This document shows, in pieces, positions 29,290-48,034 of a DNA stretch of 64,000 nt. The stretch's first letter is position 1; every line of letters begins with the position of its first letter. The stretch lies in contig CAWGOM010000008.1 of NCBI GenBank assembly GCA_963824165.1, positions 67,140 through 131,139 on the forward strand. Direction: 5' to 3'. The DNA comes from an uncultured Acidobacteriota bacterium. GTDB taxonomy: Bacteria > Acidobacteriota > Thermoanaerobaculia > UBA5066 > Gp7-AA6. The notes under the pieces are model-generated. The model was not told where the DNA came from. It worked only from the letters and a program-made list of their open reading frames with translations, and ran no database searches. Position numbers and translations under genes: made by a program.

Positions 29290-29365
29290 GTCTAACGGGT
29301 GGCGGGTCAGCGGCGAGCCCCGAAGCGAAGCGCAGGGGCGAGTCCGCTGCACACGCGGGTTAGGC
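29290..29365 (-). repeat. attC
   Basis: gtctaacgggtggcgggtcagcggcgag...gagtccgctgcacacgcgggttaggc. Confidence 0.9.
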
Positions 29366-29389
29366 GGCCGCACCGACCACTCCCTGCTT

Positions 29390-30625: not shown

Positions 30626-30723
30626 AGTGAGTCCCTTTTGCGGACACGCTGATCATCTCATCGGTTCCGAAACTCCGATGGAGCCAGGCTGACTCGGCAC
30701 CCTGCTGAGAGCGCCTTCGGGCC

Positions 30724-30799
30724 GCCTAACGGGTGGCGGGTCAGCGGCGAGTGACGAGCCGAAGGCGAGGCACGAGTCCGCTGCACCCGCGGGTTAGGC
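30724..30799 (-). repeat. attC
   Basis: Canonical 76-bp family member. Confidence 0.9.
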
Positions 30800-30802
30800 G
30801 GC

Positions 30803-32048
30803 TCAACCATTAGCTGACTCCACGGTTACCGACGTGGCCAGGCGGAAGGGTTGGACCTTGCCGTAAGTGAGACTCCGCCAGCACCACTCTGCTGGTCCAA
30901 AGCGGTATCGCGTCATCCAGGCTCGCGCCAGCACAACCTGCACCACGTAGCCTACGACGGCGACGGCAGCGAGTCCCGCCGGTCCCACTTTTCCCATGAG
31001 CGCAGGCCCGTGTGCGAAGCCGTAGAACATCCAGATGCCGAAGAGCGTCTGGAGCAGATACCACGTCAGGGCCATACGGCCCATCGGGGCGAGCAGGCTC
31101 ACCACCCGTCTCCAGCGCGCGACGAGAAACGCCAGAGCAACGGCGGACGCGTAGGCCAATGTCAGCCCGAGCTGACCTCCCTCGACGAGCAGCCGTCGAC
31201 TGAACGCCAGCCACGGATTGTCAGGAGCGCCCGTCAGAACTCTCCCGGCGAAGATGCTGCTTCCGACTACGCCAACGAGTCCTCCGACGAGAAGGACCTT
31301 TCGAAGCAACGTGCGATGCCCGCCAAGGTTCCCCAGGTTGAGCGTGCGGGCAACGTAGAGCCCGAGAATGAGGCGCCCGAAGACGGCCACTTGGTATCCG
31401 ATCTGATCGATGGAGAGGGTCAGATACCAGTCGTACCGCCAGTTCGCCTTCAGGACCTCGCTGTAGCTCCCACCGCTGAATGCGGCGAGAGCCATCGCGT
31501 CGTAGTCGGTCGTTGCCGTGACCGGGTGGGTCAGTCCGGCCTCCGCGGCCGGCGACGAGCGCTGGGAGCAGCACGCCGGTCGCCAGTGCGATTCCGAGTA
31601 GGCGCCTGGGCGCGGTTCGCACGAAGAGCGGGAGCAGTACGGCCCAGAGGGCGTAAAAACGCAGAATGTCGAAGCACCACAGGAGCCAACCATGGATTGC
31701 CCCGATCGCGAACAGCCAGAAGATCCTCCGATAGAACGGCGCGGTCACCGACGTAGCTCTGCCGCCCACTCGACTTAGGAACAGCCAGAAGCTGATGCCG
31801 AAAAGAAGCGAGAAGAGACCCATGAACTTGTTCTCGATGAAGAATCGCTCGAAGAAATAGGCGATGGTATCGAGCCGACCGCGGAATAACGACGCCCGTT
31901 GCTCCTCGGTCAGGTACTCGATACCCGAGAAGATCAGCAGGTTCGCCCAGAACACGCCAAAGAGGGCAAACCCTCGGAGTGAATCCACGAACTCCACGCG
32001 CCCGGCTGCGGGTATCGCGTCGCCGACATCTCTCATCCGTCGCCCCAA
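30803..32048 (-). pseudogene. DUF418 (YeiB-like) membrane protein, one frameshift (cassette)
   Basis: N-terminal part (ORF 31221..32048) contains FVDSLRGFALFGVFWANLL. The C-terminal part (ORF 30803..31693) contains ...MALTWYLLQT...RYRFGPAEWCWRSLTYG. The shift is near 31560. Confidence 0.8.
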
Positions 32049-32181
32049 ACGCCGGAGACGCCCATGTGATCGGTCAGGACCGCTGGAGCGTAAGCCAAGC
32101 TGTTCCCGGATGACATGAGTGGTTTCAACGAGCGAAGCGTTCCCCTCACACTGCTGCCGCGCCGCCTAGCCGTGGTCGTAT

Positions 32182-32424
32182 TCAGCCGAGAAACCTGAGT
32201 GCCTTCTGCGGCACGACTGGATAGTGGTACAACCCGCGTTCACGATTGCTCATTGTGCGGGTCACGTTGGCGAACTCGCTGTAGAACTGGCGCTTCGTCA
32301 TCCTGAACGTTCCCAAGGGCGTGACGATCTCGAACACGTCACCGTCCGCAAGCGGCTCGATTACCGATGCCCTGAACCCAAGACGGTGAAACTTGTAGCG
32401 AGCTGCTTTTCTACCTGTACTCAT
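32182..32424 (-). CDS. hypothetical protein (same cassette as the DUF418 gene, or its attC has been lost)
   Basis: 80-aa ORF. No attC was found between it and the DUF418 gene. Confidence 0.45.
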   Translation of the reverse strand: MSTGRKAARYKFHRLGFRASVIEPLADGDVFEIVTPLGTFRMTKRQFYSEFANVTRTMSNRERGLYHYPVVPQKALRFLG

Positions 32425-32446
32425 AGGTTTCTCACAACCTGGAGCC

Positions 32447-32522
32447 GCCTAACGGGTGGCGGGTCAGCGGCGAGCCCCGAAGCGAAGCGCAGGGGCGAGT
32501 CCGCTGCACCCGCGGGTTAGGC
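32447..32522 (-). repeat. attC
   Basis: Canonical 76-bp family member. Confidence 0.9.
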
Positions 32523-32780
32523 GCCGGCGACGAGGGGAAAGCGCTCGGGATGCTCGATGGATTCCACCGAGAGATCCACGTCGAGATCCGGCCAGTAGAG
32601 ATGATCTGCATGTGGCCACTCGACATTGAGAATCTTCGAAACCGGCGCGCTGGCAAACCAGGGGAACTTCTCGAACGAGACGAACAACTCCCGGCCCCCA
32701 AGGAAGAGCCAGAACCCTTGCCTCGATATGTTGGCAACTTCAACCTGCGAAGTGCCTGCGCCAAGCTTGTCGGATCTCAT
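32517..32780 (-). CDS. DUF2442-family protein (cassette)
   Basis: Starts at the Met at 32780. Contains ...VEVANISRQGFWLFLGGRELFVSFEKFPWF...HLYWPDLDVDLSVESI. The stop is the TAA in the attC core. Confidence 0.65.
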   Translation of the reverse strand: MRSDKLGAGTSQVEVANISRQGFWLFLGGRELFVSFEKFPWFASAPVSKILNVEWPHADHLYWPDLDVDLSVESIEHPERFPLVAGA

Positions 32781-32982
32781 CTTGCCGCCTCTCCAAAAGC
32801 TCTTGAATTCTAGCAATCTCGCGCTCAGGAAAGCCGTAATTTGCGTGCAACTCGACCTGCGGCTCCATCCAAAACTTCGCTTCTGCCTCAGCGGATTGGA
32901 CATGAACGTGCATCCGCGCCTCTTCCCTGGAGAAGAAGAACACTCGGATGCCGCCCTCCCGAAAGACAGTTGCTGCTTCGGC
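32740..32982 (-). CDS. DUF4160-family protein (cassette); start codon unresolved
   Basis: GIRVFFFSREEARMHVHVQSAEAEAKFWMEPQVEL...EIARIQELLERRQDEIRQAW. No ATG/GTG/TTG lies between the attC and this motif, so the start may be inside the attC. Confidence 0.6.
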   Translation of the reverse strand, partial: AEAATVFREGGIRVFFFSREEARMHVHVQSAEAEAKFWMEPQVELHANYGFPEREIARIQELLERRQDEIRQAWRRHFAG

Positions 32983-33061
32983 GCCTAACGGGTGGCGGGT
33001 CAGCGGCGAGCCGGGGCGAGCGCAGCGAGCCACGCGAGTCCGCTGCACCCGCGGGTTAGGC
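32983..33061 (-). repeat. attC
   Basis: gcctaacgggtggcgggtcagcggcgag...gagtccgctgcacccgcgggttaggc, 79 bp with a variant centre. Confidence 0.9.
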
Positions 33062-33116
33062 GGCCGGACGCCTAGGCCACTTTGGCACCACGAATGCACG
33101 GACAGGCTCTCCGATC

Positions 33117-33287
33117 TCACGGAAGGATTAGCGCGCGGACAGGGTATCCAAATGCGAGCGCCACGGTCGCGACGACAGGTGCTTGAGCGAGGGTCCAGCC
33201 GGTAGCAACCGCGGCCGTCTGCCGCCACGCGCTTGGGTTGTCACGGCGGGCCACTGTCGACCTCACTTTCATGGCGTCGCCCAGCAT
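33117..33287 (-). CDS. hypothetical small membrane protein (cassette)
   Basis: About 56-aa ORF starting at the Met at 33287, with one hydrophobic segment. Confidence 0.35.
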   Translation of the reverse strand: MLGDAMKVRSTVARRDNPSAWRQTAAVATGWTLAQAPVVATVALAFGYPVRALILP

Positions 33288-33325
33288 AGCCCGACAGGCG
33301 ACGGGTACGAGGCGGTGACACGGCG

Positions 33326-33384
33326 GCCTAACGCTCGGCATCAGCGGCACGCGTAGCGCCGTCCGCTCCATGCCGTTGTTAGAC
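33326..33384 (-). repeat. attC, short subfamily
   Basis: gcctaacgctcggcatcagcggc...gtccgctccatgccgttgttagac, 59 bp. Confidence 0.8.
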
Positions 33385-34093
33385 GGCGCCCTCAGTGGTG
33401 ACGCCAACGGTCGCAGGCCTTCCCATCTTGAGCAGCTTCCGGCCGACGAGCGCGGTCCAGATCGGCAGTGGCGCGACGCCCAGGAACCCCCCGATGGCTG
33501 AGGATGTTGTGGAGGATTTCGTTCGCCCGCTCCGTCCCCGCCGGGGGATCGCGGTTGAAGGGAAGCGGGCCGAAAGTCGGGTCAACGAAGAGGAAGTTCC
33601 CGACGGGGAAGACGGCAGCGATCATCAGACCGACACCGACCACCGTCCCGAACCACCTGAGGCCCCGGGGGAAGGCGCCAGCCACGAGCCGGTTGACGAC
33701 GATGAGCCAGAGCCCGAGCAAGCCCTGCCAGAGCATGAAGAAGGGGCCTGCGAGGACGTTGGCGATGATGAGTAGCAGAGTCAAAGTGGTGAGCACGAGA
33801 GCCGCGATGCCTGTCGCGACAATCGATCGGCGCGCGCCCGGAGAACGCTGGCCGACAATGCCGCCGAAGGAGAGCACGAGCGGGATCATGAAGAGAGATT
33901 GGACAAGGACTCCGACGTCGTGGGTCGTGATCAGAGGCCTGCAGGTCTGCTCGTCGCTCCCCGAGATCATCGTGATCAGGAACGCCCACAGGAACCCGTA
34001 GGCGACGAGGCCGATCACGCCGCTCGTGATCGCCGCTCGGCCTGCGGAGCGATACGATGCCGCGGTCGTCTTTGCGGAAGTTGATGTCGACAT
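33379..34093 (-). pseudogene. multi-TM membrane protein, one frameshift (cassette)
   Basis: ORF 33392..34093 is hydrophobic. The C-terminus ...GGFLGVAPLPIWTALVGRKLL continues in ORF 33379..33585 and ends on the TAA in the attC core. Confidence 0.55.
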
Positions 34094-34118
34094 CGTCGCG
34101 ATTCCCTCTAGATCTGCC

Positions 34119-34194
34119 GCCTAACGGACGGCGGAGCTCTTTTCGATCTCAGCCATCGCCACCGGCTGAGCAATGCTGGCCGCGAACGTTACGG
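34119..34194 (-). repeat. possible divergent attC or remnant cassette
   Basis: gcctaacggacggcgg ... gcgaacgttacgg, 76 bp with core-like ends but poor arm pairing. It lies 19 bp from the next attC. Confidence 0.4.
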
Positions 34195-34213
34195 CACAGA
34201 GCCCGATGAAGCG

Positions 34214-34289
34214 GCCTAACGGGTGGCGGGTCAGCGGCGAGCCCCGAGCCGAAGGCGAGGACCGAGTCCGCTGCACCCGCGGGTTAGGC
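34214..34289 (-). repeat. attC
   Basis: Canonical 76-bp family member. Confidence 0.9.
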
Positions 34290-34712
34290 GGCTGCACTGG
34301 GTACCTCAACCGCTTTCCGACGCCTTTCGATCGCCCAGCACATTGCGAAAGCTACTCCTGCGGCCACGAGCGCTTTCGCCAGTTGGGGCAGGAGGTCCAT
34401 CAATGTTGGTGTGACGTACCAACGCGTCGCTGACCAAGTGCATACGCCCACGAAGACGCCCACCCCTGCCGCCCAGGCCAGCGGCCTCGCCGTCTCGAGA
34501 CAAAACCCGGCCGCTACGCCGGCCAACGCCGCTCCCAGCGCGACAGGGATCGTGTTGAGCGCGTGCATCACCAACGTCTGCCAACCGCCCTGATACGTGC
34601 GACCCTCCGTGAGCTTCGAAATCAAAAGCCAGAATGGGATGATCAGCCACGATGCTAGGTAGTAAGCACCGATCATGACCAACGCGTTCCGAAGCCACAA
34701 CTGCTTCCCCAT
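34284..34712 (-). CDS. hypothetical 4-TM membrane protein (cassette)
   Basis: 142-aa hydrophobic ORF. The stop is the TAA in the attC core. Confidence 0.55.
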   Translation of the reverse strand: MGKQLWLRNALVMIGAYYLASWLIIPFWLLISKLTEGRTYQGGWQTLVMHALNTIPVALGAALAGVAAGFCLETARPLAWAAGVGVFVGVCTWSATRWYVTPTLMDLLPQLAKALVAAGVAFAMCWAIERRRKAVEVPSAAA

Positions 34713-34723
34713 GCTTTTCAGCC

Positions 34724-34799
34724 GCCTAACGGGTGGCGGGTCAGCGGCGAGCCCCGTAGCGAAGCGTAGGGGCGAGTCCGCTGCACCCGCGGGTTAGGC
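34724..34799 (-). repeat. attC
   Basis: Canonical 76-bp family member. Confidence 0.9.
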
Positions 34800-34838
34800 G
34801 GCCGCACAATGGACACCCGCGATGAAGCGTAGGCCGAC

Positions 34839-36533
34839 TCATTTGTACCTCGTGTGCCCGCGCGTCGGCGTCACAGGCTTCGCCGCGTCAGACGCACGCC
34901 GCACGTCGTCGTCTGTGAAGACTGCGAAAAGGAACGGCAGCGATTCGAGGAAGTGCAGCCAGCCTCGCAACGTCAGACCAAGATCCGACAGCCGGTCTTC
35001 ATCAACGAAGATTTGGCAGTTCTCCGGCATCGAAGGACGTAATCAGCTGCTTCGCCTCAGGATCGAACTTCTCGTGCAACAGATCAACGATCGACGGCGC
35101 ATAGTGACGGCGGTCCGGCGACGGCGGTTCCGACGGCATGCCATGGTCGGCGGTCACCGCGAGAAGATAGTTGTTCCCAACCTTTGCCTCCAGCGCACGT
35201 CAGCATCCGCGCCAGCTGACGGTCCATTTCGCCGAGTGTGACGCGGAGCTCGTTCGAATCCGGACCGTACTTGTGGCCCACGAAATCCGCGCCCTTGAAG
35301 TTCAGCAGAACGAGATCGGCGACGTTGTCTTCGCCCAGCGGGCTCGCGCTCGATCATCGCGGTCATCGCATCGGCCTCGAATGCCGGAAACAGGGCCGAA
35401 TAGCGGACCGCGACGGGCGAATCGACTCTGTGACTGCATCCACTCACCGTCCGCCGGCGGCAGTGTCCTCGCGTTTCGATCCTTCAGGTACTCGGGCAGC
35501 CGGTAACAATTGGGATTCGTGGTCCAGCCGCCCGTCTGCTGGTCGTAGCTTGCGAGCACGACCGGCGCTCCATTCAGCTGACACGCTCCATGCCCCGCGA
35601 GCGGCGTCGCCGCTCGGTCGATGCTGCCCTGCGCCAGAATGATCGCGCGACCAGCTGTCGCGAGCTGCCAGACGTCTGCCAGCGTCAATGCCATCAGATC
35701 TTGCGGCGTCGCTCCTGCGAATAGGTTGTGGCGCCGGCGGTTGATGCGATCGTACACGCTGACGCCGGTGATTCCGTGCACGCGAGGATCGGTGCCCGTC
35801 GAGATCGTCGAGTGCCCAACGGCGGTGTTCGACGGGAAGGATGTTGACTCGCGCCTGAGTGAACCAGGCGCTGCGCTGGCGCAGGGCGGTCGAGCGTCGG
35901 CATGGAGCCGGCGTACCGATCGAAGTAATCCCGACGCATGCCATCCAGGACGAGCAGCATGACCACTCGCGGTCGAGCAAACGACGTCCGCAAGACCGGC
36001 AATACACGGCCTGTCGCGGTCGGGGGCATCTGCACGCCAAGCGCACGCCGCAAGCGTAGGCGCAACGTCCTGCTGCGCCGCCGGCATCGAGTACACCCCC
36101 GTTTTCACTGCAGGGCCCGCAAACATCAGCGGAATCGAGACGTCATACGACCCACGGCGAACCGTGCATGTACGCCACGTCCGGGTCAGGCCGGGTGATG
36201 AAGTCGCCTTCACGCGGCACGATCAGGAGTTGGCCAGTTCGTCCGGGAAAGTATGCCCGAGCGAACATTTCGAGGAAGCGCTGTCGCGCCGCAAGGGTCG
36301 GCGGCATCGGCTGACGCCACACGCGGCGTTGCGCCGCCCCCAGAAGATCGCTTGACCTGCTGGCCGGAAATCGTCCAAGCCATCGCGACCAGGGTCAGGG
36401 CGAGGAGGACGGCACTGCAAGCGGTCAGCCTCGAGCAGATGACAGAGGTTCGCCGCGTCGTCACCGCACCTGCCTCAAAGAGGAGATCAGCGACCCGCCG
36501 TCGGCTTTCGCTGGGACTATCGACGCCTGACAT
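34839..36533 (-). pseudogene. alkaline-phosphatase-superfamily (nucleotide pyrophosphatase/phosphodiesterase-like) protein, many frameshifts (cassette)
   Basis: Fragments in several frames: VVMLLVLDGMRRDYFDRY, HSTISTGTDPRVHGITG, NFKGADFVGHKYGPDSNE and TADHGM-type C-terminus. The N-terminal TM segment is in ORF 36210..36533. Confidence 0.65.
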
Positions 36534-36538
36534 CGGCC

Positions 36539-36614
36539 GCCTAACGGGTGGCGGGTCAGCGGCGAGCCCCGTAGCGAAGCGCAGGGGCGAGTCCGCTGCA
36601 CCCGCGGGTTAGGC
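36539..36614 (-). repeat. attC
   Basis: Canonical 76-bp family member. Confidence 0.9.
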
Positions 36615-36623
36615 GGCTCCTTG

Positions 36624-36962
36624 TCACAGCCGTCCCGTCCCACCGAGTGGCGATACTGGCTTGCTTTTCTTCCCGCGATACTTGGCTTCGAGATCGCGCC
36701 ACCCCTTTTCCTCAAGAAGCCGGAATATGCCGGCCACCACCAATGCCAGCACGACAGCGCCAAGAAGCGATCAGCATGCCAAAGTAACTGAATTCCACCA
36801 TCCAGAACGGTGCGATACGTTTCACGCGCCCTCTCCCGCCGACACTTTCGCGACAGCGCGCGAGACAACACTGTGCAGCGCAACGGCCGATCCGAGGCCG
36901 GCCAGGATGAGGCCAGCCGCGAATAGCCGGCGACGGGATGCTAGTGCATATCGACCGTCCAT
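36624..36962 (-). CDS. small hypothetical membrane protein(s), frame-disrupted (cassette)
   Basis: A 46-codon ORF MDGRYALASRRRLFAAGLILAGLGSAV (36822..36962), then MVEFSYFGMLIAS... shifting into LGAVVLALVVAGIFRLLEEKGW... Confidence 0.3.
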
Positions 36963-36975
36963 CGTACCTAGAGCC

Positions 36976-37051
36976 GCCTAACGGGTGGCGGGTCAGCGGC
37001 GAGCCCCGAAGCGAAGCGCAGGGGCGAGTCCGCTGCACCCGCGGGTTAGGC
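36976..37051 (-). repeat. attC
   Basis: Canonical 76-bp family member. Confidence 0.9.
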
Positions 37052-37054
37052 GCC

Positions 37055-37537
37055 TCAATTATTCGTCGGGTTGACGTACACGTTAACGGTGGCCGGCACA
37101 TTAGTCGTGTTGAAGAGATACAAATGATATGCGGGAAATCCCGCGACCGCATGCGTCGACTGCGACATGAAATAGCTGGAGTCGCCAGCCGCCACCGGAG
37201 CCGTGAACTCTGCGGCTGCCAGAACCAGCTTCCGGCTTCGATAAAGCGAGTCGAAAAAGGGCCGGTCTGGAACAAGAAGAACGCCAACAACACCGTCTCG
37301 ATCCGCCCGACCTTTGAGTTCACCTGCAATCGTGACGACGAATCCACCGGCCCTCGCGACCGTCACGATACCGGCGTCGGTAAACCGTGATGCGTCAGAG
37401 CGGTCTGCGGTCGTTACGCTGAGCCCCTCAAAGGAGCTCAAGCCGGCAACCTGCGCACACAGAACCGAGGTGCCTAAGGCTATCGAGAGCAGCGAGAGAA
37501 AAGAGATACGACCCCAAACTGAGGCGCTAGGGTTCAT
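37055..37537 (-). CDS. hypothetical secreted protein (cassette)
   Basis: 160-aa protein starting at the Met at 37537, with signal peptide MNPSASVWGRISFLSLLSIALGTSVLCAQ. No family recognised. Confidence 0.55.
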   Translation of the reverse strand: MNPSASVWGRISFLSLLSIALGTSVLCAQVAGLSSFEGLSVTTADRSDASRFTDAGIVTVARAGGFVVTIAGELKGRADRDGVVGVLLVPDRPFFDSLYRSRKLVLAAAEFTAPVAAGDSSYFMSQSTHAVAGFPAYHLYLFNTTNVPATVNVYVNPTNN

Positions 37538-37600
37538 GAGCCCTCCTGATGTCTTTGGATCGGCACGACTGTATACGGGCATCAACCTTGAGCCGTTGGC

Positions 37601-37676
37601 GCCTAACGGGTGGCGGGTCAGCGGCGAGCTCCGAGGCGAAGCCGAGGAGCGAGTCCGCTGCACCCGCGGGTTAGGC
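37601..37676 (-). repeat. attC
   Basis: Canonical 76-bp family member. Confidence 0.9.
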
Positions 37677-37827
37677 GGCGGCGCCGTGCGTTCGTGACGA
37701 CCATCAGGCAGTCGAGCAATCACCAGCAGTCTCCGAGAATGCCTCGTCATGGTCGCCCAAGCGCTGGTAGATCCAAGCGAACGGCCCACATCGATTGCTA
37801 TCCAGCCCTTGTCACAGCACACGCTTG

Positions 37828-39090
37828 TTAGGTCGCTGCCGGCGAGCGGAACGGCTGCCTCCGGCCGTATGTGAGCGACCGCCATGCCCACTCGGCTGGC
37901 CCGAAACGGAACCGCCGGAGCCACCATGCGCTGGCGATTGCCTGGGCTACGAACACCGCGAGGGTCACCCCAAGGGCGGCCGTGGGGCCCACCTTGCCGT
38001 ACCACCCGAGGCCCAGTCCGTAGAAGAGGAAGACGCAAATGACGCTCTGCCCGACGTAGTTCGTGAGGGCCATCCGGCCCACCGGAGCGAAGAGATACAA
38101 CCGTGGACGCCACACCGGGCGCCGGAACAGGAGGACAATCCCACAGACGTAGGACGCCGCGAGGGCCACCACGCCGAGGTTCCAGAGCACCGTCCGCGCA
38201 ACTCTCGCCGGCCACGACTCCCCAGCCAGCACGGGGAGATACTCGTCCGCCAGGAGGATGCCCTGACAGGTCAAGCCGAGCGCGAGCCCGCGCACGAGCC
38301 CGCGCCGTACGAATGCCACGGCTGAACTTTCCTCACGATTACTCTCATGACCTGCGCTCGCACGGACGAGGATACCGGTACGGCCGGCCCACAATCCGAG
38401 AAGGAACTTCCCGAAGCTCGCGACCCCGGTCTTCAGGGCGTCGTCCGTCGACAGCCACGCCCACACATCCGCCGCGTTGGCGCGGACCACGTCCGCGTAG
38501 GAGCCGTGGGCGAAGGCCGCGTGGAGCGCGGTTGCGGTCGCCAACCGTGCCTCGAACCCGCCGCCAAGATCGACTGCTCCGCCCGTGACGACAGGGAGGC
38601 TCAACAGCAACGCTTGGACGGCGGCCGGGACGAGGACGGCGAAGGCGAGCCCCCACCCGACGAGTGTCCGGTCGCTCGCGGAAACCCAACCGATCAGCAG
38701 CAATCCGAGCACGGCGTAGAGGTGAAGGATGTCGCCGTAGTAGATCAGCAACGCATGAGCCACGCCGAAGAGGAAGAGCCACAGCATCCTCCGGACGTAG
38801 AGGGGCTTCACGGCGCCCCCGCGCCCGCTCGCTCGCTGCATCTGGAGCGCGAAGCCGAGGCCGAAGAGAAAGGAGAAAATCGAGATGAACTTGTTGACGA
38901 CGAAGAAGTTCTCGAACTCGAGCACGAAAGGATCAAAGGCAGCGGTCGGCAGGCGTGCTGCGGCGTCTGGTTCGAGGTCCCCGTAACCGCTGAAGAACCA
39001 CAGGACGTTGGCCCAGAGCACGCCGAACAGGGCGAAGCCGCGGAGGACGTCGAGGACATCGATCCGCTCCCCGGTTGCGACCGGCGTCAG
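37828..39090 (-). CDS. DUF418 (YeiB-like) membrane protein (cassette); start uncertain
   Basis: ORF 37828..39021 plus an in-frame upstream ERIDVLDVLRGFALFG motif. The C-terminus is RRFRFGPAEWAWRSLTYG. No canonical start lies upstream of the motif. Confidence 0.75.
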   Translation of the reverse strand: MTPVATGERIDVLDVLRGFALFGVLWANVLWFFSGYGDLEPDAAARLPTAAFDPFVLEFENFFVVNKFISIFSFLFGLGFALQMQRASGRGGAVKPLYVRRMLWLFLFGVAHALLIYYGDILHLYAVLGLLLIGWVSASDRTLVGWGLAFAVLVPAAVQALLLSLPVVTGGAVDLGGGFEARLATATALHAAFAHGSYADVVRANAADVWAWLSTDDALKTGVASFGKFLLGLWAGRTGILVRASAGHESNREESSAVAFVRRGLVRGLALGLTCQGILLADEYLPVLAGESWPARVARTVLWNLGVVALAASYVCGIVLLFRRPVWRPRLYLFAPVGRMALTNYVGQSVICVFLFYGLGLGWYGKVGPTAALGVTLAVFVAQAIASAWWLRRFRFGPAEWAWRSLTYGRRQPFRSPAAT

Positions 39091-39194
39091 TGAGCTCGTA
39101 CCTACCTCAGTTGTCAGCGGACCCCCAAGCGCGTAACCACATGCGCGACTCGGGCAAGAAGGAAGAACTCGGGGACCCCATTCGTCACACCGCC

Positions 39195-39270
39195 GCCTAA
39201 CGGGTGGCGGGTCAGCGGCGAGCCCCGTAGCGAAGCGTAGGGGCGAGTCCGCTGCACCCGCGGGTTAGGC
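39195..39270 (-). repeat. attC
   Basis: Canonical 76-bp family member. Confidence 0.9.
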
Positions 39271-39279
39271 CGCGCTTGC

Positions 39280-39588
39280 CTAGTTCGCATGTTCACGCTC
39301 GCGCCGCGCCGCCACCGAAAACGTCCACGCCTGAAGGCCGAGCAATGGAGCGATCACGCCCAGGACCATCGCGACCATGACAAGCCGGTCACTCCAACTC
39401 CACTCAGCGCTAGCGAATATCGCATACACGATGACGAGCGCAACGACCGCCAAGCTCACGAGCAAGAAAGCGCCGATCACGAAGAGACTCCACCGATACG
39501 CAAGTGCCGCCATCAGGCCGCTGATTGCGGCGACGACGGCAGCCACACTAGACACACCCCGGGAATCCTCCATCCGCAATCGCGGCAA
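39280..39588 (-). CDS. hypothetical 3-TM membrane protein (cassette)
   Basis: 102-aa hydrophobic ORF. Confidence 0.5.
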   Translation of the reverse strand: MPRLRMEDSRGVSSVAAVVAAISGLMAALAYRWSLFVIGAFLLVSLAVVALVIVYAIFASAEWSWSDRLVMVAMVLGVIAPLLGLQAWTFSVAARREREHAN

Positions 39589-39666
39589 CCAAGTACAGCA
39601 CGCACACGGCCGAGGACACGAGGAGGATCCGCCGCGCGACAGGGTTCAGCATGCTCGGTCTACGCG

Positions 39667-39742
39667 GCCTAACGGGTGGCGGGTCAGCGGCGAGCTCCGA
39701 GCCGAAGGCGAGGAGCGAGTCCGCTGCACCCGCGGGTTAGGC
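39667..39742 (-). repeat. attC
   Basis: Canonical 76-bp family member. Confidence 0.9.
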
Positions 39743-39747
39743 CGCAC

Positions 39748-40746
39748 CTAGACCTCATGCTGCAAGGTCAAGACAATTCTCCCCGGACTCGATCCGCGCT
39801 CGACGGCCTCGTGCGCTGAAGAGATGTCGTCAAGTGGGACGCGCGCTTCGATGTCGAAACCAAGCCAGCCGTTCCGCAGCGTATTGTTCAAGGCAGAGGC
39901 GGCCTCAATCTTTGCCGCCGTGGGGAAGTCGTCGCTGCCCAGGAAGAACATCGCAACGTTCTTGAACACCAGAGGCCAGAACGGGATCGTCGGTGTTGGG
40001 TTTCCGGTCGCGTACGTCGCGATCGAGCCACCTTGCAACAGGATGTGCTCGTCAGTCGCAATGTTCGCGTGAAAGGCCACCTCGACAATATGGTCTACGC
40101 CTTCGGATGCGTGAGCGAGGATGCTTTCGGCCGCCGCTTGGGTCGAGAGGTCGCCGGTGACGATGACATGGTGTGCGCCAGCCCGTTCCGCGACTACCCT
40201 GTCCTGTTCGGAGCGAACCGTTGCGAGCACGGTGGCACCGGAATGCCGCGCCAGCGCGACAGCACACTGTCCGACAGCGCCAGCACCTCCCTGGACAAGA
40301 ACCGTTCGCCCATCGACCGGGCCGGCGACATGGACGGCTCGGTGGGCAGTGATGCCGGGAATACCCAGGCAGGCACCTTGCTCGAAGCTCACATTGACCG
40401 GCAGCGGCACGGCTCGATCGGCCGGTACGACAACAAACTCGGCGGCTGTCCCGAATGGCCGGTAACTCTGCGCTCCGAAGCACCACACCCGTTCGCCGAG
40501 TCGAGACACCGACACCACGTCGCCAACCTTGTCGATGACGCCAGCGCCGTCGCTGTGGGGGACGACCCGCGGATACGGCATGCCGACACCGAACATGCCC
40601 TGACGCTTCTTGACGTCGCCGGGGTTGATGCCGGAGACGGCGATGCGGATGCGAACCTCGTTCGGGCCCGGTTCAGGAGTAGGCATCGCGCCTACAAGGA
40701 GAACCTCGTTGGCGGCGCCCTGGCGTTCGTACCAAGCTGCTCTCAT
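39748..40746 (-). CDS. NADPH:quinone oxidoreductase / zinc-type alcohol dehydrogenase (MDR) family (cassette)
   Basis: Starts at the Met at 40746: MRAAWYERQGAANEVL...VSGINPGD...VLVQGGAGAVGQCAVALA. Confidence 0.8.
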   Translation of the reverse strand: MRAAWYERQGAANEVLLVGAMPTPEPGPNEVRIRIAVSGINPGDVKKRQGMFGVGMPYPRVVPHSDGAGVIDKVGDVVSVSRLGERVWCFGAQSYRPFGTAAEFVVVPADRAVPLPVNVSFEQGACLGIPGITAHRAVHVAGPVDGRTVLVQGGAGAVGQCAVALARHSGATVLATVRSEQDRVVAERAGAHHVIVTGDLSTQAAAESILAHASEGVDHIVEVAFHANIATDEHILLQGGSIATYATGNPTPTIPFWPLVFKNVAMFFLGSDDFPTAAKIEAASALNNTLRNGWLGFDIEARVPLDDISSAHEAVERGSSPGRIVLTLQHEV

Positions 40747-40779
40747 GGTGCCCTCCGTCGGTGTGGCGTTCTTGGTGCG

Positions 40780-40855
40780 GCCTAACGGGTGGCGGGTCAG
40801 CGGCGAGCGCCGTAGCGAAGCGTAGGCGCGAGTCCGCTGCACCCGCGGGTTAGGC
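40780..40855 (-). repeat. attC
   Basis: Canonical 76-bp family member. Coordinates were fixed from the ORF 39748..40890 translation. Confidence 0.9.
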
Positions 40856-41056
40856 GACGCTTGTTCGCCACAGCGCCACGCTGCGATCACCCGCTTTAGC
40901 TCTGCGCCACAGACTCGATTCTCCGGGTGCCACCACTGCCTCTAGCTCTGACGTCAGACACCCTGCAACCCACGACTCGCGACTATCGTTGCCGACCCGG
41001 CTGCGCCGCCACGCTGGAAAAGCCCCGGGCAGGAAGGAGCAACTCGGGGACCTCAT
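40850..41056 (-). CDS. hypothetical small ORF (cassette)
   Basis: 68 codons from the Met at 41056, ending on the TAA in the attC core. No similarity recognised. Confidence 0.3.
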   Translation of the reverse strand: MRSPSCSFLPGAFPAWRRSRVGNDSRESWVAGCLTSELEAVVAPGESSLWRRAKAGDRSVALWRTSVA

Positions 41057-41068
41057 TCCTCCCACGTC

Positions 41069-41184
41069 GCCTAACGGGTGGCGGGTCAGCTGCGGGCGCC
41101 CCGCAGCGATGAAACCCCTGACTCGCGACAACTTCCCTGCGCGGCAATCCCAGGGCGACCGTCAGCTGCACCCGCGGGTTAGGC
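41069..41184 (-). repeat. attC, long variant (116 bp)
   Basis: Canonical outer arms. The inner helix is changed to cagctg/cagctg on both arms, and the centre is enlarged and contains the near-palindrome gctgcgggcgccccgcagc. Confidence 0.85.
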
Positions 41185-41548
41185 GCCCCTTCCCTGTCGG
41201 GTTTACACGCCACGCGACACCTCGCTCGCACCAGGCCTCGACCACGGGATGCGCCGGCTGGCGCGCGCTACGGATTGTCCTCCCTCTCGCCACTCGCGCG
41301 CCAGAGCGGCGCGGATTACGACGGGGGGCGGGCCGACTGATGAGTCGTCTGATGCCAGCGCCGAATCCTCGAGCCACACTGCGCCCTGCTCCTGGAGCCG
41401 AGATAGTCGGCCCGCATCCCGCAGGCGGACGGCGCGCAGAACTTCTACCGATTACGCCAACCTCTCCCCTCCGGACACAATCGCGAGCCTCGCGATCGTC
41501 GACGCGACTATTCAGCCCGCGCGACGGCCGCCGTCTTGAGTCCGAAGC

Positions 41549-41625
41549 GCCTAACGGGTGGCGGGTCAGCGGCGAGCGCCGAGGCGAAGCGCGAGGAGCG
41601 AGTCCGCTGCACCCGCGGGTTAGGC
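41549..41625 (-). repeat. attC
   Basis: Canonical family member, 77 bp. Confidence 0.9.
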
Positions 41626-41820
41626 GGCGGCTTCATCGGGCCTCGTCTGGAACTGCGTCGAAGCGCGCAGACCAGCGATGTACAAGGCGCCAACGAATCG
41701 CCCGACGAAGATCGAAGCCGACGATCGCAACGCTGCGGATCGACTCCGCGTCCGACTGCTTCTCGCCAGACGATGCACGGATCGCGACCTCAGCAAGTAG
41801 CATCGCAACTGCTGCAACAC
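41620..41820 (-). CDS. hypothetical small ORF (cassette)
   Basis: 66-aa ORF ending on the TAA in the attC core. Upstream hydrophobic fragments lie in other frames. Confidence 0.3.
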   Translation of the reverse strand: MLQQLRCYLLRSRSVHRLARSSRTRSRSAALRSSASIFVGRFVGALYIAGLRASTQFQTRPDEAAA

Positions 41821-42013
41821 CGTCGGCCGTCAGCGGCGAGCCAGCATCGTCTGCCAGCCACGGCAGATCAGTTGCCCGTCTGCCACGCTACGCGCCCTGC
41901 AGAACGACCGACGGTCAGCCAGGCGATGCACCGCAGACAGTCGGCCCATGCTGCGACTGACGAACGAAGCGTCATGCGAACGAGTCTCATGCGTTCACCC
42001 TGCTCCAACCGCC

Positions 42014-42089
42014 GCCTAACGGGTGGCGGGTCAGCGGCGAGCTCCGAGCCGAAGGCGAGGAGCGAGTCCGCTGCACCCGCGGGTTAGGC
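42014..42089 (-). repeat. attC
   Basis: Canonical 76-bp family member. Confidence 0.9.
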
Positions 42090-42552
42090 GGCGCCACACT
42101 CATCGGACCTCATAGTTTGGGTAATTGTCAGAGTCACGCGAACCGGGCGCCCGTTCTGTCGGCCGGCTCGTACTTCCATCGCGATAGTGCCCGATGGGAC
42201 TCGTCTCCAGCTCTGGGCACGCTGCGAGACAAGCGGAGCCTCGAAGTACGGAGGTTCTCCACGTCACCTTTCACCGTAACTGTTGCCTCGAATACGAAAA
42301 GGCCTTCGACCCGTGACTTCCGGCAGCGCTCGGGGATCACGGCTCAACCCTAGCTTACAAGGCGCGGCGGGCTGACGTCGCCACCGATACCGACGACCCC
42401 GGGTGCGACTGTCGAGGCCGGGCTGGCAGAGGTCACAACTTCTTTGGTCCGACAGTGCTCGACCACTCCTGCCGACAGCCGCCGACAAACACTACGGCGA
42501 CGGCCCAGGTGATCGAGCGAGAGCTACCAGCGCCATGATGTGGATCAGCGCC

Positions 42553-42628
42553 GCCTAACGGGTGGCGGGTCAGCGGCGAGCTCCGAGCCGAAGGCGAGGA
42601 GCGAGTCCGCTGCACCCGCGGGTTAGGC
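42553..42628 (-). repeat. attC
   Basis: Canonical 76-bp family member. Confidence 0.9.
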
Positions 42629-42907
42629 GCCCTTTGATAGCTCACGCTGGAGCCGCTCGGCTAGAAACTGTTTCAGCAACGACTGATATGGGATGTCACG
42701 CTTGTTGGCCAGTACCTTGAGGTGACCGATCATCGACTCAGGCAACCTCAGAGAGATTGTGCGAAGGGTCGGACGCAGATTCGGGAAGGCTCGCCGCTGA
42801 GCACCGGTCCAGTCCACGAAGTCAGCCGAATCGTGTTCAGCCCAGAAGCTGCGCTCCTGCTCTTCAGATTCGAACTTTGGAATCTGCTTACGCTTTGCTT
42901 TGCTCAT
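42623..42907 (-). CDS. brnA: BrnA antitoxin (cassette)
   Basis: 94-aa ORF with ...FESEEQERSFWAEHDSADFVDW...ISLRLPESMIGHLKVLANKRDIPYQSLLK. The stop is the TAA in the attC core. Confidence 0.8.
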   Translation of the reverse strand: MSKAKRKQIPKFESEEQERSFWAEHDSADFVDWTGAQRRAFPNLRPTLRTISLRLPESMIGHLKVLANKRDIPYQSLLKQFLAERLQRELSKGA

Positions 42908-43196
42908 AGGTTTGTAGTTCCCTTCGGGTCATGTCGCGTACCGAGATCACTCGGATGAGAGACCTTCGAACGGTAAAGCTGATGAAGAGCCGGCGCCCGG
43001 AGTCCGCATGGCCGAGCGCGAAGTAGCGAGACTCGGAAGCAGAATGCTCGCGATCGGGCGAGACAACCAGTGGCTCGTTGAAGAAGACCTCCTCAGCCTC
43101 CCAAAACGGCACCCGGTGACGGTCCCAGTTCTTCTCGAGGTTGCCGTCATCCCAATCAAAGCCGGTACAGCCTGCCAGGGGGTCATCTGCCGCCAC
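42888..43196 (-). CDS. brnT: BrnT toxin (DUF497 ribonuclease) (cassette)
   Basis: 102-aa ORF with FDWDDGNLEKNWDRHRV...EAEEVFFN...RVISVRDMTRRE. It overlaps brnA. Confidence 0.8.
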   Translation of the reverse strand: MAADDPLAGCTGFDWDDGNLEKNWDRHRVPFWEAEEVFFNEPLVVSPDREHSASESRYFALGHADSGRRLFISFTVRRSLIRVISVRDMTRRELQTYEQSKA

Positions 43197-43243
43197 GCCG
43201 AGAGTATATGGCAGACATATACGCGGCGCAAGACCCTCAGGGC

Positions 43244-43319
43244 GCCTAACGGGTGGCGGGTCAGCGGCGAGCGCCGTAGCGAAGCGTAGGCGCGAGTCCG
43301 CTGCACCCGCGGGTTAGGC
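43244..43319 (-). repeat. attC
   Basis: Canonical 76-bp family member. Confidence 0.9.
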
Positions 43320-43744
43320 GGCGCCATCTTGATTCCCTGGCAGCCGCGTCCAGCACGCTCTGCTGAGATGTCTGGCCGGTCATCGTTCTGGTACACCGTG
43401 CTTCAAGCAGATCCGAAGACGCTGATCTCGAGCTGCTTCAATCTCGATCCAGCCAATGACCAGCGGCCCGTGCTCGATCAGCAGCTCCGTGAGTGCGTCG
43501 AGACTCGAACCGCCAATTCGCTGTCGGTCGGCGCCCGCTCTACGAGGACGCAGGATCGAACGCCAGGCCTCTTCCGGCTCGAGCTGGCACGAACTCGATA
43601 GGCCGTTCCAGGACCAGAACGTACCGGCATGCGTCGAGCCAGCGCCGCCACGAATGCGTCGCGATCGCGAAACCGTCGGCGATCAGTAACCGTCAGGTAC
43701 TTCCGCTCGCGAGTGGTCACGCCAACCTCAGCCACCTGCGCGCC

Positions 43745-43820
43745 GCCTAACGGGTGGCGGGTCAGCGGCGAGCTCCGAGCCGAAGGCGAGGAGCGAGTCC
43801 GCTGCACCCGCGGGTTAGGC
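43745..43820 (-). repeat. attC
   Basis: Canonical 76-bp family member. Confidence 0.9.
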
Positions 43821-44248
43821 GGCCTCGACGGGAGTCTCCAGTCGAGGCTTGCCAAAGTGCGTTCGTAAATCGGCAAAGTAAACAATGCCCAGGATCAGGC
43901 CTGCAGCGAGTGTGGAGAGCAGCGCCGCAGCTCCTGGCGGGCCGGGATACGACACGAGCGGCCTTCGAAGAGGGTGCCCACGACTCCCAGTAACCAGCCA
44001 GCCGTGTAAATGGCTCGAGCCCTCGCACCACTGCCGCCAGAGCCCAATCCAGCCGACGATAAGGACAAGCGAAACTACCGCCCTCCCACCAGAAAGCGAC
44101 GCCCTCCTGCCTGCTCTTCTGTTGCTCTACGAAACTCCGAAATTCTGGAGGAAGCGAACCTCTCGACAGCAATGACGCCACCACCCAGATAAGACCAAAC
44201 GTGATCTCGCTCGAGAATCAGGATCCTGAGCACGCGATGAAGTTTCAT
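43815..44248 (-). pseudogene. hypothetical membrane protein, frame-disrupted (cassette)
   Basis: Starts MKLHRVLRILILE at 44248. The C-terminal TM segment AALLSTLAAGLILGIVYFADL... is in another frame and ends on the TAA in the attC core. Confidence 0.4.
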
Positions 44249-44260
44249 TCGTCTTAGGCC

Positions 44261-44336
44261 GCCTAACGGGTGGCGGGTCAGCGGCGAGCGCCGAGGCGAA
44301 GCCGAGGCGCGAGTCCGCTGCACCCGCGGGTTAGGC
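44261..44336 (-). repeat. attC (first, closest to attI)
   Basis: Canonical 76-bp family member. Confidence 0.9.
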
Positions 44337-44346
44337 GGCGGCACGA

Positions 44347-44580
44347 TCAGAGCCCTCCGAGAAGCCGAGTCATGACGAGGATTACCAGACACCCGACAAT
44401 GATGAACGAACCCAAGAACGAGCCGCGGAGGAAACTCCTGTCGGGATGCCGGATTCCAAGCCAGATTCCACCAACAACGACAACCAGCCAGACTAGCAAC
44501 ACGGAGTAGGCCGCGACTGGGGTGACAAGAAGCTCAAGCAATGTGCCTGGTGCTTCTTCGGCTGCGAATGCAGGCGGCAA
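44347..44580 (-). CDS. hypothetical small membrane protein (first cassette)
   Basis: 77-aa ORF with 2 TM segments. A signal-like N-terminus (V)KRSLLATSGFLVTLAVGVCVPVIAS starts at GTG 44657 in another frame, so a frameshift is possible. Confidence 0.45.
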   Translation of the reverse strand: MPPAFAAEEAPGTLLELLVTPVAAYSVLLVWLVVVVGGIWLGIRHPDRSFLRGSFLGSFIIVGCLVILVMTRLLGGL

Positions 44581-44687
44581 GAAGCGATCACAGGGACACA
44601 GACGCCGACAGCGAGAGTGACGAGGAAGCCGCTGGTCGCGAGGAGGCTCCTTTTCACTGCTATTGCGGCCACGGTCTAGTTCCGTCC

Positions 44688-44768
44688 GCCTAACGCTCGC
44701 ATAGGCTGTAACTTCGACTTCCTAAGCGTTCCTGTCAATCGCTGCATCGTCCACCGCCCCTCGTCTCT
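44688..44768 (-). other. candidate attI site
   Basis: A single core GTTAGGC on the minus strand (plus-strand gcctaac, 44688-44694) with no partner arm. It is preceded by GTTACAG and CTTAGGA core-like boxes and lies between the intI stop and the first cassette. Confidence 0.65.
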
Positions 44769-45968
44769 CTATTCATCTACGTCCTCGGATTCCGAATCAT
44801 CGGGAAGTTCCTCACCGGTCAGAAGTAAACGCTCCGGGGGCACGAGCGACGTCAGGTAGTTAGGCTGCGAAGAAAGCTGTCTAGTGTCAGGACCGCCGGC
44901 GACGCCGGCCCACAGGATGTCGGCAGGGCTGCGGACGCCGCGTCCACCACGGTTCAAAACGTGGGTGTAGATCATGGTCGTCTTCACGTCTCTGTGGCCG
45001 AGGAGCTCCTGGATCGTGCGGATATCGTACCCCTCTTCGAGCAGGTGGGTGGCGAAGGAGTGGCGGAAGGTGTGGCAGCTGATCCGCCTGGAGATGCCGA
45101 CGTCGAGGACGGCGCGACGAAGGGCGCGCTGGATGACGGTCTCGTGCAAGTGGTGGCGGCGCTCGGGTTGGAGGTCGCCGGGCGCGGTGGGGTTTCGGAC
45201 GGGCGGTGCGGCGCCAGGCTGGCCGGGGCGCCTCTCTCCCCCGCGGGGGTCGTGGCTGCGGTGTTCGCCGGGGAAGACGTACTGCCAGCCCCACTCGCGG
45301 TCGGAGCCGGGGAACTTCCTCGCGATGGCGTCGGGCAGGTAGACGGTCCCGAATCCGTCGGCGAGGTCCTTCTCGTGGATGCGCTTGACGCGGGAGAGCC
45401 AGGTGGGCATCTCGGCGCGGGCGACGAGGGGGAAGGGGACGACGCGGTCTTCGCCGCCCTTGGTGTCGCGGACGACGATGCGGTTGTTGCCGAACTCGAG
45501 GTCCTTGACGCGCAGGCGCAGGCATTCGAGGAGTCGCATTCCCGTGCCGTAGAGAAGTGTCGACACGAGGCGGGGCGTCCCGTTCATGCGGCCGAGGATG
45601 CGGCGGACTTCCGCGCGGGTGAGCACGCTCGGGAGGCGGCCGGGGCGCTTGGCGCGGATGACGGTGTCGAGGTCGGGCAGGGGTTTCTGGAGGACGTGGC
45701 GGTAGAGGAACATCAGGGCCGAGAGGGCCTGGGTCTGGGTCGACGCGCTGACGGGACCTTCGACGGCGAGATGCGTGACGAAGGCATTGATCTCGGGCTC
45801 GGCCATCTCGAGGGGATGGCGTTTGTTGTGAAACAGGATGTAGCGGCGGATCCAGCCGACGTAGGCCTCCTCGGTGCGCAGGCTGTAGTGGCGGGCGCGG
45901 ATGGCCTGGCGCACGCGGTCGAGCAGGCGCGGCTGGCCGGGAGGGGGAACGACGGTGGAGGACGCCAC
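44769..45968 (-). CDS. intI: integron integrase IntI
   Basis: 399-aa ORF with [38 protein letters not shown], the IntI-specific segment [43 protein letters not shown] and [14 protein letters not shown]. Confidence 0.92.
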
Positions 45969-46591: not shown

Positions 46592-47020
46592 CTAGGCGAA
46601 GGGATTCCGGACGGTCACGCCCTCGTAGGTCTGGCCATGATTGAGGTCCTCGGTCCAGAGGATCCGGCAGCCGAGCGAGCGGGCGCTCTGGAGGATCATG
46701 GCGTCCCAGAACGAGATGTGGAGGCGCTCCCGGAGGTCGATGGCGGAGAGGACGTCGCTCGGCCAGGGGCGGTGGACGCGCCAGCGCGAGAGGTACGCGA
46801 TCTCGCGCCTGGCCTCGGGGGGCGAAAGGGGCTTCGAGATCTTCGCCGTGACGGAAACGAAGAACTCCTGGAGAACCTGGATGCTCAGGCAGCCGCTGCC
46901 CTTCTGCCAGAGATCGACGACGTGTCTTCGAGCCAGCGCGCTCTTGTCACCTGCGGCGTGGTCGAATGCGTAGACGAGGACGTTGCTGTCGAGAAACTGC
47001 GGCGGCTCAGCGGCGCTCAT
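46592..47020 (-). CDS. vapC: PIN-domain toxin VapC
   Basis: 142-aa ORF with FLDSNVLVYAFD ... FWDAMILQSA, the PIN acidic residues. Confidence 0.8.
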   Translation of the reverse strand: MSAAEPPQFLDSNVLVYAFDHAAGDKSALARRHVVDLWQKGSGCLSIQVLQEFFVSVTAKISKPLSPPEARREIAYLSRWRVHRPWPSDVLSAIDLRERLHISFWDAMILQSARSLGCRILWTEDLNHGQTYEGVTVRNPFA

Positions 47021-47294
47021 GCAGTTCGTCGCGCGTCCAGGTGATCTTGCCGCCGGTGCCGAGATCTCTCGGCTGGTGGAGCGACTCGAGGGCCCGCACG
47101 CGGGCCTCCTCGTACGCGTCGTCCTGGCGGACGAGCTCCTCGAGGGCTTCGACGAGAAGGCGGGAGATGGATGTCTCCTTCTCGACGGCGAGGTGCTTGA
47201 CCTTCCGGAGCAGGGCCCTGGGCAGCGCGAGGGTCACGTTCTGGGTTTCCACCGGTCTACCTATATGGGTGTTGTCGCGAGAGTCGCTCTTCAC
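47007..47294 (-). CDS. VapB-type (ribbon-helix-helix-like) antitoxin
   Basis: 95-aa ORF overlapping the vapC start. Contains VTLALPRALLRKVKHLAVEKETSISRLL. Confidence 0.6.
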   Translation of the reverse strand: MKSDSRDNTHIGRPVETQNVTLALPRALLRKVKHLAVEKETSISRLLVEALEELVRQDDAYEEARVRALESLHQPRDLGTGGKITWTRDELHERR

Positions 47295-47373: not shown

Positions 47374-47994
47374 CTACGGCTTCGGCAGTGTCGCCCAGGG
47401 CGGGATCGCGAGAGCGTCCATGACGAGCTCGACGGAGAGGGCGGCGAGGAGGATGCCCATGACGCGGACGAGGATCGACGCGCCCTGGCGCCCGATGACG
47501 CGGAGGATGGCGTCGGAGGCGAGGAAGAGTCCGTAGGTCAGGAGGAGAACGAAGAGGAGGACGGCGGCGGTCTCCATCTGCTGGGGCACGGTGTAGACGT
47601 CGTTGTCGGTCAGGACGATGACGGCCATGATCGTCCCGGGGCCGGCGATGGAGGGAACGGCGAGGGGAAAGATGGCGATGTCGCGGTCGGGGTCGTCGGA
47701 GGCGGCGGCGCTCTCGAGTTTGCCGAAGAGCATCTGGAGGGAGAAGAGAAACAGGATGATGCCGCCGGCGAGCTTCAACGAGAGCAGGTGGACGCCCATG
47801 GCGTCGAGGATGAACTGGCCGGTGACGACGGCGCCGACGAGGATGATCGCGGCGTAGGTCGTGGCGCGGCGGGCGACGCGGCGGCGCTCGTCGCGGGTCA
47901 ACGTCGCCGTCAGGCCGGCGAAGAGGGCGAGGCTGCCGATCGGATCGACGGTCGCCCAGATGAACATGAAGTCGCGGACGATCTTGGCGAGCAT
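47374..47994 (-). CDS. marC: MarC-family (UPF0056) membrane protein
   Basis: 206-aa protein starting at the Met at 47994: MLAKIVRDFMFIWATVDPIG...IAIFPLAVPSIAGPG. Confidence 0.8.
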   Translation of the reverse strand: MLAKIVRDFMFIWATVDPIGSLALFAGLTATLTRDERRRVARRATTYAAIILVGAVVTGQFILDAMGVHLLSLKLAGGIILFLFSLQMLFGKLESAAASDDPDRDIAIFPLAVPSIAGPGTIMAVIVLTDNDVYTVPQQMETAAVLLFVLLLTYGLFLASDAILRVIGRQGASILVRVMGILLAALSVELVMDALAIPPWATLPKP

Positions 47995-48034
47995 GGAGCG
48001 CTGGCCAGGGACTATATGCCGGCGCGGGTGTCTC

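Follow-up and report, generated by a model that had tools for sequence, protein, structure and literature searches.

An Acidobacteriota genome with a reverse-type sedentary integron

Does the integrase gene of this integron point towards its own attI site and cassettes, or does the array that follows it belong to something else? The stretch of DNA analysed here (64,000 nucleotides from an uncultured Acidobacteriota bacterium, hereafter the window) carries one intI and a long series of attC sites. The earlier note, made from the sequence alone, had proposed an inverted layout in which intI runs into attI and the array. Our analysis supports this proposal: 27 attC sites follow intI, and their top strand is the strand that encodes the gene. 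We conclude that the Acidobacteriota genome from which the window comes very probably has a sedentary integron in its chromosome, and that this integron is of the reverse (inverted-intI) type. Its sedentary character is apparent from a fixed chromosomal location that is shared between genomes, from the length of the array and from the high similarity of the attCs. The element is a fresh, well-supported example of an already known layout and not a new kind of element. Coordinates of the features are collected in Table 1.

Table 1. Features of the integron and of its upstream flank, in window coordinates
Feature	Position	Strand	Remarks
marC-family membrane protein gene	47374..48000	minus	PF01914; conserved chromosomal flank
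VapBC module	46592..47294	minus	PIN-domain toxin 46592-47020 (PF01850), antitoxin 47007-47294; between marC and ParDE
ParE antitoxin	46262-46510	minus	PF05016 / PF09720 pair
ParE toxin	45972-46265	minus	PF05016 / PF09720 pair; stop codon 45974-45972
intI, integron integrase, 399 aa	44769..45968	minus	GTG start 45968, TAG stop 44771-44769
Variable spacer, intI stop to attI	44727..44768	minus	poorly conserved, 11-nt indel among relatives
attI (putative)	44688..44726	minus	conserved 39-nt block CTTAGGAAGTCGAAGTTACAGCCTATGCGAGCGTTAGGC, read 44726 to 44688
L-like box GCCTATG	44706 to 44700	minus	within putative attI
R box GTTAGGC	44694 to 44688	minus	within putative attI
Predicted crossover, between G and TT	between 44694 and 44693	minus	within putative attI
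Cassette 1, 427 nt	44267..44693	minus	attC 44336 to 44261
Two small membrane-protein-like ORFs	44493-44672, 44347-44580	minus	cassette 1
Cassette array, 27 attC sites	22137..44336	top strand minus for all	covariance model, stem covariation, DNA folds
Long attC variant, 116 nt	41069-41184	minus	in array

The product of intI scores 433 bits against the NCBIfam model TIGR02249 "integron integrase" (cut-off 265), and both PF13495 and PF00589 are found in it by Pfam. It aligns with the Vibrio cholerae integrase VchIntIA (PDB 2A3V) at E = 7e-84, in two stretches on either side of an insertion, and in this alignment the six catalytic residues (R145, K170, H299, R302, H325 and Y334) are intact. The IntI-specific additional domain is present as well, the alignment spanning it with a break at the insertion of 23-26 aa, and W228, P241, H272 and H273 are the equivalents of VchIntIA W219, P232, H240 and H241. 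The insertion itself is rich in proline and glycine and occupies residues ~243-268 (window 45163-45240) at the tip of the beta-hairpin of the IntI-specific domain, between the equivalents of VchIntIA P232 and H240/H241. Such insertions are restricted to the closest, tight clade of Acidobacteriota integrases, in which they vary in length between 7 and 23 aa and are hypervariable in sequence; ~65 other IntIs have exactly 24 residues across the hairpin stretch. In VchIntIA the corresponding hairpin is the one that touches the extrahelical bases, and it is at this place that the window IntI is enlarged.

The protein also extends ~50 aa past the usual IntI end (window 44769-44920), in an acidic tail that ends in EDVDE. 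This extension is kept at the protein level in eight relatives, and one related gene (L094; loci of the genome comparison are given as L numbers) stops prematurely before it. Near the same end of the gene an attC-like hairpin over the intI stop codon was considered and rejected: the stretch from 44688 to the copy of GTTAGGC within intI (44859-44865, plus strand) folds no better than shuffled sequence (z = -1.1). On the coding strand this copy reads GCCTAAC (44865 to 44859) and follows conserved Q-P-N codons, with DNA that varies among the relatives.

The array comprises 27 cassettes across 22 kb. A covariance model (R1) built from 22 aligned attCs of the window found 26 sites, and a 116-nt variant brings the number to 27. 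There are 22 sites of 76-79 nt, three of 59-64 nt, the 116-nt variant and a truncated last site. The sites fold into hairpins that carry RYYYAAC and GTTRRRY cores (R'' and R') and have bulged bases on one arm, with fold z-scores of -3.4 to -4.2; in the alignment 97% of stem cells are paired, compensatory changes occur in four pairs and the mean column identity within the window array is 85%. On the minus strand the 27 sites score 43-103 bits with R1, as against at most 27 bits on the plus strand. The heptamer GTTAGGC occurs 50 times in the window (2.65 expected by chance), and the copies at 22207, 23054, 23570, 27263, 28519, 29359 and 33326 are attC arms whose opposite arm has one mismatch.

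The last attC (22137-22213) retains its R''/L'' arm and loop, with an unrelated sequence in place of the R'/L' arm; R' reads GTTACGT, the hairpin fold is lost and the site marks the distal end of the array. Within the array, 34119-34192 is a decayed attC or a mini-cassette devoid of an ORF, with an exact GTTAGGC 88 nt after the R' of the preceding attC; its hairpin is weak (z = -0.7, model score ~10 bits). Two weak R1 matches beyond the array (11633-11708 and 3667-3742) were treated as noise, the first having neither AAC/GTT cores nor a fold signal. A detector that combined regular expressions with folding was specific in the window and too insensitive or too noisy for distant loci of lower GC, and was abandoned there.

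The earlier note had placed the attI site at a GTTAGGC core about 75 nt past the intI stop codon; the distance measured on the minus strand is 74 nt. The same core had been described as the only isolated copy, with no partner arm. The second half of that description holds, as the core (44694 to 44688) has no partner arm and is covered by no attC model match; the first half does not, since two further exact copies are unpaired, one in the decayed attC (34119-34125, minus) and one in the coding sequence of intI (44859-44865, plus).

The placement of attI at this core is nonetheless supported by a conserved block that ends there and by the points at which homology breaks off in related genomes. 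Seven of eight aligned relatives carry the block (C/T)TTAGGAAGTC(G/T)AAGTTACAGCCTATGCA...GTTAGGC, and similarity is lost right after the core. In blastn comparisons the collinear homology that covers the marC flank and intI ends at 44686 in L094, at 44687 in L084 and at 44688 in L104, and beyond 44686-44688 these three share with the window individual cassettes only, at different positions. An attI crossover point is recognised by just this pattern, a conserved platform that stops at one core and gives way to shuffled cassettes. On this sequence evidence, attI would be the block ending at the core 44694 to 44688.

In the mechanism that we propose, IntI would bind attI and the folded bottom strand of attC, which is the plus strand of the window and on which attC would present two bulges (T and C) on its 3' arm, as the attC of aadA1 does. 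Strand exchange between G and TT would then bring new cassettes in right after intI and in the same orientation. The intI gene (from 45968 to 44769, minus strand) is directed towards its own putative attI, and the cassettes follow on the same strand down to 22137. Judged from the sequence, the element may be active in recombination; points that count against this reading are the failure to identify a Pc, the unusual hairpin insertion of the integrase, the damaged intI genes of several relatives and the truncated terminal attC.

How the cassettes are expressed in such an arrangement is a separate matter. No terminator-like site was found between intI and the core or cassette 1 in a scan of 44300-46700, nor any sigma-70 promoter-like site on either strand of the same interval, where the consensus used was that of E. 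coli, from which Acidobacteriota promoters may differ. A candidate Pc within attI (TTGACA at 44738-44733, with GAAGTT 17 nt downstream) was rejected, as it is not conserved in the relatives and fails the scan. With neither a terminator nor a recognisable sigma-70 promoter between intI and the cassettes, transcription of the ParDE-intI unit could plausibly continue into the array. For the same reason we favour transcripts that start upstream: the attI-proximal cassettes are most likely expressed from transcripts that would begin in the ParDE-intI unit and extend past the end of intI. It is about as likely that there is a separate Pc that went unrecognised.

The latter belongs to a broader alternative, to which we give a little less than an even chance, namely that the reverse layout is real and cassette expression is independent of intI, being driven by a Pc of non-sigma-70 consensus in the 3' end of intI or in attI, together with promoters inside the cassettes. 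In published schemes of reverse integrons intI is indeed followed by a separate Pc (PMC6557892, PMC4909258); it is usual for toxin-antitoxin cassettes to bring promoters of their own, and the array holds both a BrnTA and a ParE-like cassette; one promoter cannot serve an array of 22 kb; and promoters in this phylum may depart from the consensus with which we scanned. Against an independent Pc stand the lack of any promoter-like site in 44300-46700, the poor conservation of the spacer between the intI stop codon and attI, and the fact that no terminator follows intI. We also consider, as a rather improbable extension of upstream-started transcription suggested by the gene order, that intI could have no promoter of its own and act as the distal gene of a toxin-antitoxin operon, the transcript of which would run through attI into the first cassettes. 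Cassette shuffling and expression would then be set by antitoxin autoregulation and not by LexA/SOS, and the clade-specific, hypervariable loop of 7-23 aa at the hairpin tip of the integrase may in addition alter attC recognition.

Whether the reverse layout is a stable design can be judged from the relatives of the element. More than 100 proteins are 70-92% identical to the window IntI, many of them named integron integrase in their source and some assigned to Thermoanaerobaculia, and a metagenome scan gave at least two close relatives among the matches listed. Genomes were scanned with the N-terminal 240 aa of IntI as the query, for patterns specific to the family. In the comparison of genome loci the window falls among Acidobacteriota MAGs. 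Its nearest relative is L084 (on the same contig as L003), with the same marC and imuA/imuB-like flank and with same-strand cassette genes downstream of intI. The array lies downstream of intI in every Acidobacteriota-type relative with enough flanking sequence, including those whose N-terminal identity is only 58-67%. In a rough neighbour-joining tree the window belongs to a tight clade inside a larger group with downstream arrays, formed by other Acidobacteriota and by the Omnitrophota loci L139 and L140. L103 and L123, the two loci of the Proteobacteria/Isosphaeraceae part of this tree to which the strand-specific model was applied, have arrays upstream of intI and on the opposite strand. 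The presence of downstream arrays throughout these Acidobacteriota-type relatives and the tree neighbourhood indicates that the layout is ancestral to the lineage and not due to a recent inversion.

We therefore regard it as very improbable that the integron was canonical until intI was recently inverted in place, as is reported for the class 1 integron of Acinetobacter baumannii 1656-2. Isolated inversions exist and the inverted group is paraphyletic (PMC4889954), which leaves room for such an event. However, species-level relatives with N-terminal identities between 97% and ~58% have the same layout, including the attI block 3' of intI; these relatives make up the neighbourhood of the window IntI in the tree; and an intI that had been flipped alone would have left attI by the former 5' end of the gene.

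The gene is damaged in two of the relatives, by an in-frame stop in L104 (10001-10489) and by a premature stop or frameshift in L094 (~10001-11026), and both keep long arrays. With intI damaged in several relatives, integrase activity is not to be assumed for the lineage.

The other side of intI leads into the conserved chromosome. In L084, L085 and L091 marC is 76-77% identical and in synteny, and marC together with the imuA/imuB-like flank is syntenic in L003/L084, L085, L091 and L094. The interval between marC and intI differs between genomes in its toxin-antitoxin content: ParDE and VapBC are present in the window, ParDE in L088, VapBC next to intI in L104, an antitoxin only in L084 and no such genes in L085, and L094 has VapBC and a ParD-type antitoxin (100% identical over 77 aa) next to intI. 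No attC sites flank the toxin-antitoxin modules of this interval. In the window the ParE stop codon lies 3 nt before the GTG of intI on the same strand, so that no space is left for an attI 5' of intI.

These observations bear on the possibility that the integron is canonical, with its true attI upstream of intI and with a downstream array that is an unrelated CALIN or the property of another integron. Clusters of attC sites without an adjacent integrase are indeed common in genomes (PMC4889954), and the upstream toxin-antitoxin genes are of kinds that also occur as cassettes. But besides the ParE gene, which abuts the start of intI, a scan of the window from 44866 to 64000 gave no attC and no GTTAGGC core, and above 44336 the R1 model returned nothing significant (best match 16.6 bits, E = 0.08, at the distant position 57130). 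On the downstream side the array starts 352 nt after the lone core, the conserved block leads up to that core and platform homology stops there in three genomes, and 15 relatives have the same downstream arrangement on the intI strand. An attI upstream of intI, which would have contradicted the proposed layout, was thus not found, and we give the canonical arrangement almost no chance of being correct.

The layout also depends on which strand of the attCs is the top strand. The R'' and R' cores read alike on both strands, and the orientation was therefore calibrated on an attC of known gene direction, that of aadA1 in plasmid R100, in which aadA1 is transcribed divergently from intI1 and attI1 is next to the intI1 5' end. 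When the aadA1 attC is folded as single-stranded DNA, two single-base bulges separated by 6 bp appear on the 5' arm of the coding (top) strand, and on the bottom strand both are on the 3' arm. The folds of the window attCs, in both size classes, match aadA1 only if minus is taken as top and plus as bottom. The bulges were informative by the position of the single bases in the L stem; a plain count of unpaired bases per arm did not discriminate, and complementarity of the cassette ends is symmetric and makes the two orientations indistinguishable. Nor is the outer bulge of the bottom strand, a C where aadA1 has G, special to the window, as the canonical arrays of L103 and L123 also have C.

Outside the window, 17 loci (the 15 Acidobacteriota-type relatives, L139 and L140) have their R1 matches past the 3' end of intI and on its strand, whereas in the canonical loci L103 (a betaproteobacterium) and L123 (Isosphaeraceae) the matches are upstream of intI and on the other strand, which means that the strand of the model is the strand of the cassettes in both layouts. 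Coding content agrees with this. Each of the 14 cassette ORFs that Pfam supports is encoded on the minus strand, and the long plus-strand ORFs gave no Pfam match at all; in at least seven cassettes the stop codon abuts R'' or uses the TAA of R''. The claim that all cassettes share the strand of intI stands, with 27 of 27 attC sites and 14 of 14 Pfam-supported ORFs on minus, and the contrary finding that might have overturned it, a plus-strand attC top, was not made, since ORF direction, the bulges calibrated on aadA1 and the strand-specific model all give minus. The reading in which plus is the attC top, so that the cassettes run towards intI and the true attI would be found at the opposite end of the array, near 22137, draws on cores that are identical on both strands (GCCTAAC ... 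GTTAGGC), which is not decisive by itself, and on long plus-strand ORFs in several cassettes, and it deserves practically no credence given Pfam-supported ORFs that number 14 on minus and none on plus, bulge positions that fit the calibration only with minus as top, an R1 orientation that agrees with the canonical arrays of L103 and L123, and a far array end that is a truncated attC and not a conserved attI beside an integrase.

Cassette 1 differs in sequence from the first cassette of every relative. Minus-strand Pfam matches include Rce1-like, 4HBT_2, PhoD, PF00144, DUF418 (two), ADH and Phosphodiest, as well as DUF2442 (two), BrnT with a CopG antitoxin, and ParE-like; in five cassettes neither strand has a convincing ORF. 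The toxin-antitoxin-type cassettes (BrnT with a CopG-type antitoxin, ParE-like and two DUF2442) are at 42623-43196, 28006-28260, 32517-32903 and 27280-27840. The product of a cassette gene at 29390-30625 is 411 aa long and belongs to PF00144, the beta-lactamase / serine hydrolase family (E = 1.7e-57). In cassette 25, which is 3.1 kb long, a PhoD-like phosphatase is split between overlapping frames (24723-26321 and 24256-25035), both matching PF09423, which suggests a frameshift or a pseudogene; the 4HBT_2 thioesterase (23620-24045) is in the same cassette. Some cassettes are shared with relatives. Window 41065-41580, the cassette with the 116-nt attC, is 86-89% identical to a cassette that occurs twice in tandem in L084 (17151-18148), window 23494-24107 matches part of cassette 2 of L084, and window 34884-36310 matches L104. 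That relatives have shared cassettes at other places in their arrays shows directly that cassettes have been exchanged or shuffled.

The window element leaves the current understanding of integrons unchanged. It is of interest as a clean, comparatively validated reverse integron outside the spirochaetes, with an attI crossover point that homology breakpoints in three related genomes pin to a single core, and in a lineage that has this layout as a rule, as seen in each of the 15 Acidobacteriota-type relatives tested. We expect it to be useful for the annotation of soil and sediment MAGs, for the design of primers and models, and for the study of integrase-cassette expression coupling where Pc and PintI cannot sit face to face.

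An inverted-integrase group containing Treponema denticola was reportedly recognised by Boucher et al. in 2007.

Reverse (also called unusual, or inverted-intI) chromosomal integrons are known from Treponema denticola ATCC 35405, as described by Coleman et al. 2004 (PMC3607928, PMC6557892, PMC4889954), and the same layout occurs in other Treponema, in Chlorobium phaeobacteroides, in Blastopirellula marina and in one Acinetobacter class 1 integron (PMC3607928, PMC6557892, PMC4909258). In the study of Cury et al. 2016 the inverted group came out as paraphyletic (PMC4889954). The likeness to the T. denticola type that had been pointed out for the window agrees with this literature (PMC3607928, PMC6557892, PMC4889954). 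As in Treponema-type reverse integrons, a long chromosomal array, homogeneous attCs and toxin-antitoxin cassettes are present. Unlike them, the window element resides in an Acidobacteriota host (Thermoanaerobaculia-like, about 65-70% G+C), has an IntI with a clade-specific variable hairpin insertion and an acidic C-terminal extension, and is preceded directly upstream of intI by toxin-antitoxin genes.

Chromosomal integrons of Acidobacteria are known, and in the part of Ghaly et al. 2021 available to us they were used for taxon-specific attC models (PMC8352920); that part deals with attC taxonomy and says nothing on how intI is oriented. The window element belongs to the same phylum. A single attC model built from the window detects the arrays of 15 related MAGs, the attCs being homogeneous enough for this. 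With the class 1 integron In2 of R100 and the superintegron of V. cholerae (VchIntIA) the element has in common the integrase family, the catalytic residues and the GTTRRRY crossover core, and also the R''/L''/L'/R' boxes and a pair of bulges, spaced by 6 bp, in the bottom-strand 3' arm. In R100, however, attI1 and aadA1 are beside the 5' end of intI1 and the genes are divergent, whereas in the window attI adjoins the 3' end of intI and all parts point the same way.
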